Assembly (NCBI GenBank): GCA_963737155.1
Contig: CAVTRN010000002.1
Span: forward strand, 2,944,001-3,008,000
Direction: 5' to 3'
Source: Nitrospirota bacterium
GTDB taxonomy: Bacteria > Nitrospirota > UBA9217
DNA: 64,000 nt
The notes below the pieces were generated by a model that searched no databases, was not told the origin of the DNA, and saw only the letters and a program-made list of their open reading frames with translations. Shown piece after piece: positions 46,158-48,651 of this stretch. Each line of letters opens with the position of its first letter. Within the stretch, counting starts at the first letter, position 1. The position numbers were made by a program, and so were the translations under genes.

Positions 46158-46459
46158 AGGTATATCCTCCATTAATTGAGAGCGTAAACGTCCATAAGGG
46201 AGTTTACGAGAACTACTGTCTTAACGTAATTAATTTGTCTGAAAAAGATTATAGTCTCGCCGGGGCGGGACCTATGCCCGGGGTTGGCGTGTCGCTGGGA
46301 TAATGTGGATGTCTGTGCTGTTTCAAGGGGAAACTGCCTCTCTCTTTGTCTATTTCAGGTCAAAAACCATATGACAGTAGCATAAGCTGGCGAAAATTGT
46401 CAAGAAAATAGTTTGTGCGACTCTACGCAAGCAGGTTACCTTTATAACCTTCAGTTGCG

Positions 46460-46858
46460 TTATTTTTGCACAATATCCATGTACATGCTGAATGAAAGTG
46501 CAGGATTCGTCCGATCATTTGAAAAAACACTGAAATACTTGGAAATAGGTCCACGGCTCCCGGTTGTATCCACGGTCGCTCTAATCTGTCCGACAGCCCC
46601 CGGGTCCAGGTGATTTGAACTAATCACCGCGACAGTGCACCCTCAGGAAGGAACAACCCGATCAATAATCAGGGGCTCATTTCCAACATTGCGGATCTCG
46701 AAAACATGAATTGCCTGTGTCCCCATTATGACTTTTCCAAAATCATATTTAATTTCCATGGTTGCAAGCTTCGGCCCATTAACCACTTGGGCCGGAAGAT
46801 GTCCCACAATCACCGAGAATACAAAAATTGATCCGATGGAAATCAGTATCTTTTTCAT
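46460..46858 (-). CDS. DUF1573 (Ig-like) exported protein with in-frame TGA, probable selenoprotein (132 aa)
   Basis: YDFGKV...HVFEIRNVGNEPLIIDRVVPS-TGA-GCTVAVISSNHLDPGAVGQIRATVDTTG...KYFSVFSND...K*. TGA at 46643-46645; SECIS-like hairpin follows. Confidence 0.75.
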
Positions 46859-47459
46859 ACAACAGCCTTTCACGACAGAATATCTCAGCGTCCGCCGTCC
46901 TCAAATTTGTTACAACCACATTATTACCGACCAGATCATGCTGACCAATTCTTAGCAAGAGATTTAGCCTTTTTCAATAAGCAGCGTGGTCAGCGCGTCA
47001 ATCCGGGTTTTGCCATACTGAAGAGCATGGTTTAAAATTCTGCTTGGACAGATTGGGATAATTTGGATCCGTCGCCTCCATCCGATACATATTTCAATAT
47101 GGAGTATAGGCCGCTTGTCGGCTTGCAACCGGACACCACCATCCACCCGAACGAATTCAAGTTCAATCAGAATGTTTCCGAGCTTTCCTCCCCCAATTGC
47201 GTTGGTAGCTGAGCAGATCACCTGGCTTTTTAACCACTGCCATAGAAGCAAACTCCCTAAGAAACAACAAGTTCTAAACCTAATAAACAATTGATTATAT
47301 GCCCTATGAGCGGATAATGTCAACGGTTTTTGAAGGAAAGTCCTTATTCACATGGGGGTGCGGCCTGAATTATCCAGTAAAAAGTTTAAACGGGAGGATT
47401 CTGAGAAGATATTCTTCAGTGCCGATTATTGGGTTCCGCGATTAATATGGCTAGGCACC

Positions 47460-48342: not shown

Positions 48343-48651
48343 TTATCGTTTTTTTCTTGCCGTTTTTTTCTTTGCTGCTTTTTTGACCATTTTTTTTCTG
48401 GATGTTTTTTTCTTAGTTGCTGCTTTTTTCACTGCTTTTTTCACTGCCTTCTTTTTTGTCGCTTTTTTCTTCGCAGCGGACTTTTTCCTAGGGGCCGATG
48501 CGGGGGCTGACGGAGCTTCGGGAACGTTTACCATAGTTGTTTCCAAACCGCAGCAATACACCGGTTCCTCATACACCTCCCCTGTCCTCGACACCTCGAT
48601 TTTTCTACCGCACTCCCTACATTCGTACTGTATAATTTTCTCTATCCCCAT
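48343..48651 (-). CDS. Desulforedoxin-like metal-binding domain fused to a histone H1-like Lys/Ala tail
   Basis: C11-x2-C14-x18-C33C34G followed by KKAAKKK-type repeats; RBS AAGGAGG. Confidence 0.8.
   Translation of the reverse strand: MGIEKIIQYECRECGRKIEVSRTGEVYEEPVYCCGLETTMVNVPEAPSAPASAPRKKSAAKKKATKKKAVKKAVKKAATKKKTSRKKMVKKAAKKKTARKKR

Follow-up and report, generated by a model that had tools for sequence, protein, structure and literature searches.

Introduction

Selenoproteins built on the DUF1573 domain have been catalogued since 2007, when Table 2 of a study of the Olavius symbionts introduced OS_HP2 as a new selenoprotein family, with two selenocysteine (Sec) sequences and no Cys homologs at that time (PMC1976440). 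A GOS paper of 2008 listed OS_HP2 as pfam07610, with the motif UxC, two Sec sequences and 354 Cys sequences (PMC2398784), and a "DUF1573 domain-containing protein, UGC" reappears in the selenoprotein tables of papers from 2022 (PMC9312934) and 2026 (PMC13188914). Our full-text search of the literature for DUF1573 and PF07610 returned mentions in tables only, in which the function of the family is not discussed. As to the decoding signal, the bacterial SECIS element is described as a stem-loop directly past the UGA with a conserved G in its apical loop (PMC12013277; legend to Fig. 5 of PMC1976440). Two other kinds of selenoprotein provide points of comparison. MccSep of Geobacter sulfurreducens is presented as a multihaem cytochrome c selenoprotein with polysulfide reductase function, in which Sec lies near a Cys-ligated haem (bioRxiv 10.1101/2025.11.18.688581). 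The periplasmic DsbA-like and DsbG-like selenoproteins are, as is proposed for the protein considered here, exported carriers of a Sec/Cys redox pair in selenoprotein-rich bacteria, but theirs is a UxxC motif on a thioredoxin fold, whereas ours is a UxC motif on an Ig-like beta-sandwich.

We analysed a gene of the DUF1573 family from a Nitrospirota bacterium, located in a stretch of 64,000 nucleotides (contig CAVTRN010000002.1, positions 2,944,001 to 3,008,000) that is called the window throughout this text. With the OS_HP2/DUF1573 selenoproteins already described, the locus shares the PF07610 domain, a Sec at the first Cys of C-G-C and a SECIS hairpin directly downstream; it differs in that each of the two original reports held two Sec sequences, whereas here the Sec form accounts for the majority of the phylum matches listed. 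An earlier note on this DNA, made from its letters and open reading frames, had proposed that the family might be under-recognised, a suggestion that does not survive the catalogue entries for OS_HP2/pfam07610 and its UxC motif: the Sec-DUF1573 family is not new, and the window's gene is a well-supported member of a known family.

The gene and its reading frame

The coding sequence lies on the minus strand at 46460..46858, from an ATG at 46858 to a TAA at 46462-46460, and translation with TGA as U yields 132 residues with the Sec at position 72 (U72). Codon 72, the UGA at 46643..46645 (minus strand), is the first position of a U-G-C motif and stands in the context V-V-P-S-U-G-C-T-V-A-V-I-S-S, in which P-S-U-G-C-T spans residues 70-75. 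Under translation table 11 the frame ends at TGA 46645-46643 and 60 sense codons follow, exactly as the earlier note had read from an ORF track that stops at TGA 46643. Automatic ORF calling cuts the gene at codon 72, and its annotation should carry the Sec codon. Both ends of the frame are shared among the orthologs, which have a common start, M-K-K/R, and a common end position.

Conservation of the TGA and selection downstream of it

Of 41 genomes searched, namely the window's own and those of 40 relatives, 31 gave matches, and among the 38 matches listed 29 contain exactly one TGA and nine contain none; eight of these nine come from other families, and the ninth is a 53-residue C-terminal fragment that stops short of the column. 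In the ortholog set, which comprises the 20 best loci from the genus and the family (L021 being the window's own place), the TGA occupies one alignment column in 20/20, always in the context [ST]-U-G-C-[TA], and between it and a stop at a common position lie 60-61 conserved codons; protein identities to the window's product are 37-77%. Further afield, in 23 distant Cys homologs and in the Pfam model too, the counterpart of U72 is the first Cys of [ST]-C-G-C-T, in agreement with the earlier placement of the TGA at the first Cys of the S-C-G-C-T motif of DUF1573; whether homologs carry TGA or Cys at this column, which the earlier note had set as a check, is answered by the 20 orthologs for the former and by the 23 distant homologs for the latter.

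The codons beyond the TGA were compared between the window's gene and 18 orthologs by the Nei-Gojobori method, with fragment L039 left out. The resulting dN/dS values are approximate, since dS often exceeds 1 and is near saturation in many comparisons; where dS is unsaturated, they lie between 0.09 and 0.23 for the 45 mature codons before the TGA (13 comparisons) and between 0.10 and 0.38 for the 60 codons after it (14 comparisons). Among these 60 downstream codons, variation is found at the third position in 57, at the first in 41 and at the second in 31. In the ratios as in the dominance of third-position variation, this is the pattern of a translated region under purifying selection, the lack of which the earlier note had named as grounds for rejecting Sec.

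The SECIS hairpin

The predicted upper stem-loop (46609..46628, minus strand) is made up of GGUGAUU at 46628-46622, the loop AGUUCA at 46621-46616 and AAUCACC at 46615-46609. Its 7-bp stem begins 14 nt after the UGA, its loop begins 21 nt after the A of the UGA, and loop positions 2-3 are G-U, so that the upper element is found as the earlier note had drawn it, in RNA letters that are those of the minus-strand transcript. The folding energy of the 66-nt region (-24.3 kcal/mol, z = -1.18) is matched or bettered by 21 of 200 shuffles and is not, taken alone, beyond chance; we have therefore relied on the comparative data, that is, on covariation, as support for the hairpin. Across the 20 orthologs 98.6% of the cells of the upper stem are paired, as against 26-56% in slid registers, and compensatory double changes are seen in three of its seven pairs: GC to CG, twice, at pair 19:36; AU to GC, five times, at pair 22:33; and UA to CG, five times, at pair 24:31. 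The observed covariation score was reached by none of 500 shuffles, although relatedness is left uncorrected in this control; within the loop, AGUUC does not vary across the set. The match to the bacterial SECIS model that had been claimed for this region accordingly holds for the covarying upper stem-loop with its conserved loop G but not for the GGGU/ACCC lower stem, which lacks conservation: 15 of the 20 orthologs do not form pair 6:42, and the helix is 80% paired and displays no convincing covariation.

The hairpin also tracks the identity of the codon over larger distances. In a distant set of 50 homologs (L075-L124; 27 Sec forms and 23 Cys forms), at least six of the seven pairs form in the fixed register in 20/27 Sec forms versus 0/23 Cys forms, with mean hairpin energies of -9.6 and -2.2 kcal/mol, respectively, and several of the seven exceptional Sec forms have the hairpin displaced by a base or so. 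The loop encodes Ser-Ser, a dipeptide that is retained in the Sec forms and lost in many Cys forms; because it is coded by the loop and follows the Sec forms, what looks like protein conservation at S80-S81 is probably in part a constraint on the RNA. An Rfam scan of 46400-46900 at E values up to 10 returned no family, the curated models of Rfam being ones that do not cover a hairpin of this sort.

Selenocysteine machinery and the decoding of UGA

The 4.84-Mb genome contains the complete set of genes that Sec insertion was expected to require when the gene was first noted. The tRNA-Sec gene (selC) scores 65 bits against a cut-off of 47, and selA (603.6 bits), selB (374.3 bits, adjoining selA) and selD (370.5 bits) all exceed their curated cut-offs. 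The selD gene has one in-frame TGA of its own and is itself a selenoprotein gene (G000:C1:1242985-1243899, L018), in which U stands in the context G-A-G-U-A-C-K. Its UGA is followed at about 16 nt by a hairpin, and the gene is the sole internal SECIS control from the same genome. A Pfam search for OsmC found six OsmC genes in the genome, of which none has an internal stop inside the domain match.

TGA is otherwise an ordinary stop here: of the 34 long frames in the window it ends 12, among them those of KatG and of the aminotransferase gene just downstream, and a genome-wide reassignment of TGA was rejected on this ground. Two orthologs, L022 and L038, employ TGA both as the Sec codon and as the real stop of the same gene, which is a within-gene illustration of context-dependent decoding.

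From what the sequences tell us, TGA 46645-46643 almost certainly encodes selenocysteine. We propose that the UGA at codon 72 would be decoded as Sec by the bacterial SelB/tRNA-Sec system, the decoding signal being the candidate 7-bp hairpin with its AGUUCA loop and a stem set 14 nt past the UGA. The fuller description of the product, as a 132-residue single-domain protein of the catalogued DUF1573/OS_HP2 family in which UGA72 is decoded through SelB and tRNA-Sec, is very probably correct. The earlier proposal of Sec decoding is thus strengthened by four lines of comparative evidence, namely the conservation of the column, the presence of selA to selD, the selection downstream and a covarying hairpin that follows TGA as opposed to TGC. 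If the TGA were instead a mere stop, whether through nonsense mutation or as the normal end of the gene, the product would be a 71-residue N-terminal fragment alone and the frame downstream would go untranslated. Table 11 does close the ORF at 46643, TGA often serves as a real stop in this genome, and some termination at UGA is expected under selenium limitation; but such a stop would have to have been kept at its column in all 20 orthologs and in 117 of the 150 phylum matches listed, ahead of codons with downstream dN/dS of 0.10-0.38 and predominantly third-position variation, within a Pfam domain that needs the half encoded after it, and beside a hairpin that covaries in Sec forms and is missing from Cys forms. 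The adjacent MshEN gene, moreover, displays the appearance of real decay in the same genome. We consider it exceedingly improbable that the TGA is a simple stop.

Domain, fold and proposed export

The read-through product matches Pfam DUF1573 (PF07610) with 76 bits (cut-off 26.1) over residues 35-119, its only other Pfam match being to a HYDIN/VesB-like Ig domain. The PF07610 search of the genome gives 68.5 bits at this gene, with one TGA within the match, and identifies no second DUF1573 gene. Since the Pfam match spans the TGA, the domain is whole only when the TGA is read through, and the earlier view that the frame past the TGA completes the DUF1573 fold is sustained by this match. The AF2 model of the 132-residue protein (mean pLDDT 85) is a beta-sandwich of eight strands that places U-G-C in a turn between the strands at 63-70 and 75-79, and its top PDB matches are HYDIN PapD-like domains and 2qsv; Pfam, AF2 and PDB matches thus agree on a DUF1573/PapD-like Ig beta-sandwich for residues 35-119 (46502..46756, minus strand). 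Foldseek searches with the AF2 models of the stand-alone protein and of a fusion protein described below returned PapD/ASH/HYDIN-type Ig domains only, with neither a redox or metal template nor a two-domain analogue of the fusion among them, and a PDB sequence search with the read-through protein returned 2qsv alone, at E = 0.066. On the all-beta sandwich of the AF2 model, the PapD/ASH-like PDB matches and the UxC spacing, the protein falls outside the thioredoxin-fold selenoproteins.

The N-terminus is signal-peptide-like over residues 1-23 (46790..46858, minus strand), with MKK, a hydrophobic core and L-P-A|Q and no lipobox Cys, and among the 18 orthologs whose N-terminus is intact, most retain the pattern x-x-A|Q-E/D. 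The AF2 model has a helix at residues 9-17 in this region, which is of low confidence overall (residues 1-22; pLDDT below 50 at residues 1-10 and 14-22). Export of the DUF1573 selenoprotein through a cleavable Sec-type signal peptide is plausible from these sequence features.

Distribution in the phylum

A profile of 18 orthologs, run against 401 genomes of the phylum, found matches in 157, among them 57 of the 63 other genomes of the window's own family. Exactly one TGA is present in 117 of the 150 matches listed (there were 39 further matches) and no internal stop in 31; one match has two TGA, and another has one TGA and one TAA. The stop-free forms among the matches listed cluster in five families and have long open frames. 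A scan of contigs with the read-through protein, performed with back-translated patterns that cannot match TGA, yielded three Bacteroidota Cys homologs only, at 30-33% identity. The best NCBIfam match of the window's protein is NF041425, "OS_HP2 family (seleno)protein", a subfamily_domain entry, at 71.2 bits, and seven relatives score 72-90 bits against the same model; as all of these scores fall below the curated cut-off of 100, the window's protein and the seven relatives lie outside the narrow NF041425 subfamily. Sec-DUF1573 would be one of the commonest exported selenoproteins of the phylum, given that the Sec form is the majority among the phylum matches listed.

Cytochrome c fusions in relatives

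In homologs from other families of the phylum, DUF1573 is often followed by a further module, some 100 residues long, in which CxxCH occurs twice. This arrangement is found in 19/27 Sec and 17/23 Cys homologs, fractions that are biased upward because the 50 distant homologs were picked mostly for long open frames. The Sec proteins with DUF1573 and the two-CxxCH cytochrome c module are L075, L076, L080 and L085-L100, and the Cys proteins with the same composition are L079, L083, L084, L105-L112, L114-L116, L121, L122 and L124. Pfam assigns the module to Cytochrome_CBB3/Cytochrom_C in 6/6 proteins tested (three Sec, three Cys); an alignment of 33 fusion proteins keeps both CxxCH motifs and an M-P without exception and a linker His with hardly any, and the AF2 model of one fusion has a pLDDT of 93 and a pTM of 0.73. 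The fusions (e.g., L075, L076, L080, L079) resemble the window's protein in a homologous domain at 29-40% identity, in the motif S/T-[U/C]-G-C-T/A and in the signal peptide, and the Sec fusion forms also in the SECIS register and the AGUUC loop; they differ in their C-terminal module, which within about 100 residues has two invariant CxxCH motifs and M-P-G, whereas in the window's protein 60 residues follow U72, with neither a CxxCH nor a cytochrome module among them, so that it does not itself have the fusion architecture. A single-sequence query of the window's genome with the fused module brought up no specific copy standing alone, the best score of a profile built on 36 modules was 22 bits, for a generic small cytochrome c, and no cytochrome gene occurs within about 1.5 kb at 30 orthologous loci. 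We found no description of a DUF1573-cytochrome c fusion in the articles searched.

Not all long homologs are fusions of this type. The Cys forms L113, L118, L119, L120 and L123, of about 250 residues, have no CxxCH; behind their domain with P-T-C-G-C-T there seems to be another one of Ig-like type, which would make for a third architecture of the family. At L101 (G325:C3) the stretch just past the DUF1573 Sec gene reads N, and an apparent 358-residue frame that runs into methyltransferase-like sequence spans these N and is not interpretable.

A possible role for the U-G-C turn

The earlier note had drawn from Sec decoding an extracytoplasmic redox or metal-binding role for a domain usually seen as structural, and U-G-C may well serve one of these two ends. 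The redox reading builds on the occurrence of the same domain, with U or C at one position, covalently fused to a two-CxxCH cytochrome c in many related genomes. Under it, U72-G-C74, held in a tight turn between two strands, would form a selenol/thiol (selenylsulfide) centre with redox activity; periplasmic c-type cytochromes would be its partners in electron exchange; and its substrate might be sulfur, selenium or a disulfide. We give this composite reading about an even chance of being right. The cytochrome fusions favour a periplasmic haem-linked redox role over a structural one, as circumstantial support that comes from gene architecture, and a cytochrome-linked redox role is our best-supported guess for the function. 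The Sec kept at one residue across most of the phylum homologs listed, together with the recurrent cytochrome fusion, gives a testable hypothesis to a family that has been a catalogue entry, and both observations suggest that the C-G-C turn takes part in electron transfer or chalcogen redox chemistry in the periplasm.

The alternatives accept a real Sec and dispute what it is for. In a small periplasmic protein with the task of a chaperone or scavenger, the U-G-C could be a soft-metal or metalloid site (e.g., for Cu(I), Hg(II), As(III) or Ni). Thiolate ligation by CxC pairs is common, such pairs being classic soft-metal ligand sets, and a small beta-sandwich with a signal peptide, no enzymatic template and no redox partner nearby would suit such a function. 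The selenoprotein catalogues, in their tables, also include metal-handling Sec proteins of related bacteria, namely MerP/MerT-like, YHS-domain, cation ATPase and CobW-like proteins. Set against this, the partner to which relatives fuse the domain is an electron-transfer cytochrome c module and not a metal transporter or a metal-regulated gene, the neighbours are housekeeping and not metal-resistance genes, and no further conserved cluster of His, Met or Cys is evident, H51 being invariant among close orthologs only and replaced by Tyr in, e.g., L075 and L079. Metal binding nonetheless stays a live rival, because the window's protein is of the stand-alone form, the genome has no copy of the module, the flanks have no cytochrome and the synteny looks inherited; we regard it as possible and rather unlikely. 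The pair could also be a purely structural selenylsulfide or disulfide that stabilises an Ig-like domain in a structural or adhesive periplasmic protein, in keeping with the usual role of DUF1573 and PapD/ASH-like domains as structural or binding modules, to judge by the fold matches, and with a C-G-C that is widespread in Cys forms lacking an obvious enzymatic partner, such as the tandem-domain L113, L118-L120 and L123. A stabilising bridge, however, sits poorly with a costly Sec insertion maintained across many families of the phylum, upkeep that as a general principle almost always marks a reactive site, and with a pair spaced by one residue in a tight turn, a strained geometry that is commoner in reactive bridges than in stabilising ones. 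That Sec maintenance almost always denotes a reactive site is also argued in the selenoprotein literature (PMC9312934). We judge a merely structural pair improbable.

Returning to the redox reading, a more specific and tentative form of it may be drawn. The DUF1573 domain with its U/C-G-C could be the part that reacts with the substrate in a haem-linked system of chalcogen redox chemistry in the periplasm, one for which we found no description; the window's family would have a split, stand-alone Sec version of it, served by other periplasmic cytochromes. By analogy with MccSep, one chalcogen of U-G-C could come near to, or ligate, the first haem, and the other could attack sulfur, polysulfide or selenium. 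MccSep is a precedent for a Sec beside a c-type haem with a partner Cys, similar to the pairing suggested by the DUF1573-cytochrome fusions; it differs in being an unrelated pentahaem, tetrameric protein in which Sec and Cys are far apart in sequence, whereas the window's protein has no haem-binding motif, and we claim no homology between the two. This elaboration is a speculative possibility, and we would not be surprised to see it fail.

Gene neighbourhood

The gene stands among housekeeping genes: purA, serA, a class-V aminotransferase, a PP-loop ATPase, ribonucleotide reductase and KatG. Its immediate order, PP-loop, MshEN, Sec-DUF1573, aminotransferase, is conserved. In a synteny set of 44 loci, 14 of which duplicate the same places, so that 30 are left after de-duplication by hand, the aminotransferase is a neighbour in 42/44 raw and 29/30 de-duplicated loci, the MshEN-domain gene in 41/44 and 27/30, and the PP-loop ATPase in 34/44 and 24/30. 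This conserved order looks like inherited synteny and not a functional operon.

Upstream of the Sec gene in the window, the MshEN-domain gene is present as a decayed remnant (46913..47243, minus strand), recognised by tblastn with intact relatives of 228-237 aa that carry Pfam MshEN. Its fragments lie in two frames, with two in-frame TAA stops and a large internal deletion that has removed most of the middle, while the adjoining Sec gene is intact; the remnant is likely the site of the promoter region of the Sec gene. Elsewhere in the window, a 102-residue ORF at 48343-48651 (minus strand) without a Pfam match has two CxxC-like motifs at its N-terminus and a long tail rich in Lys and Ala. Just upstream of the MshEN remnant, a sigma-70-like match of 12/12 occurs at 47323-47294 (minus strand).
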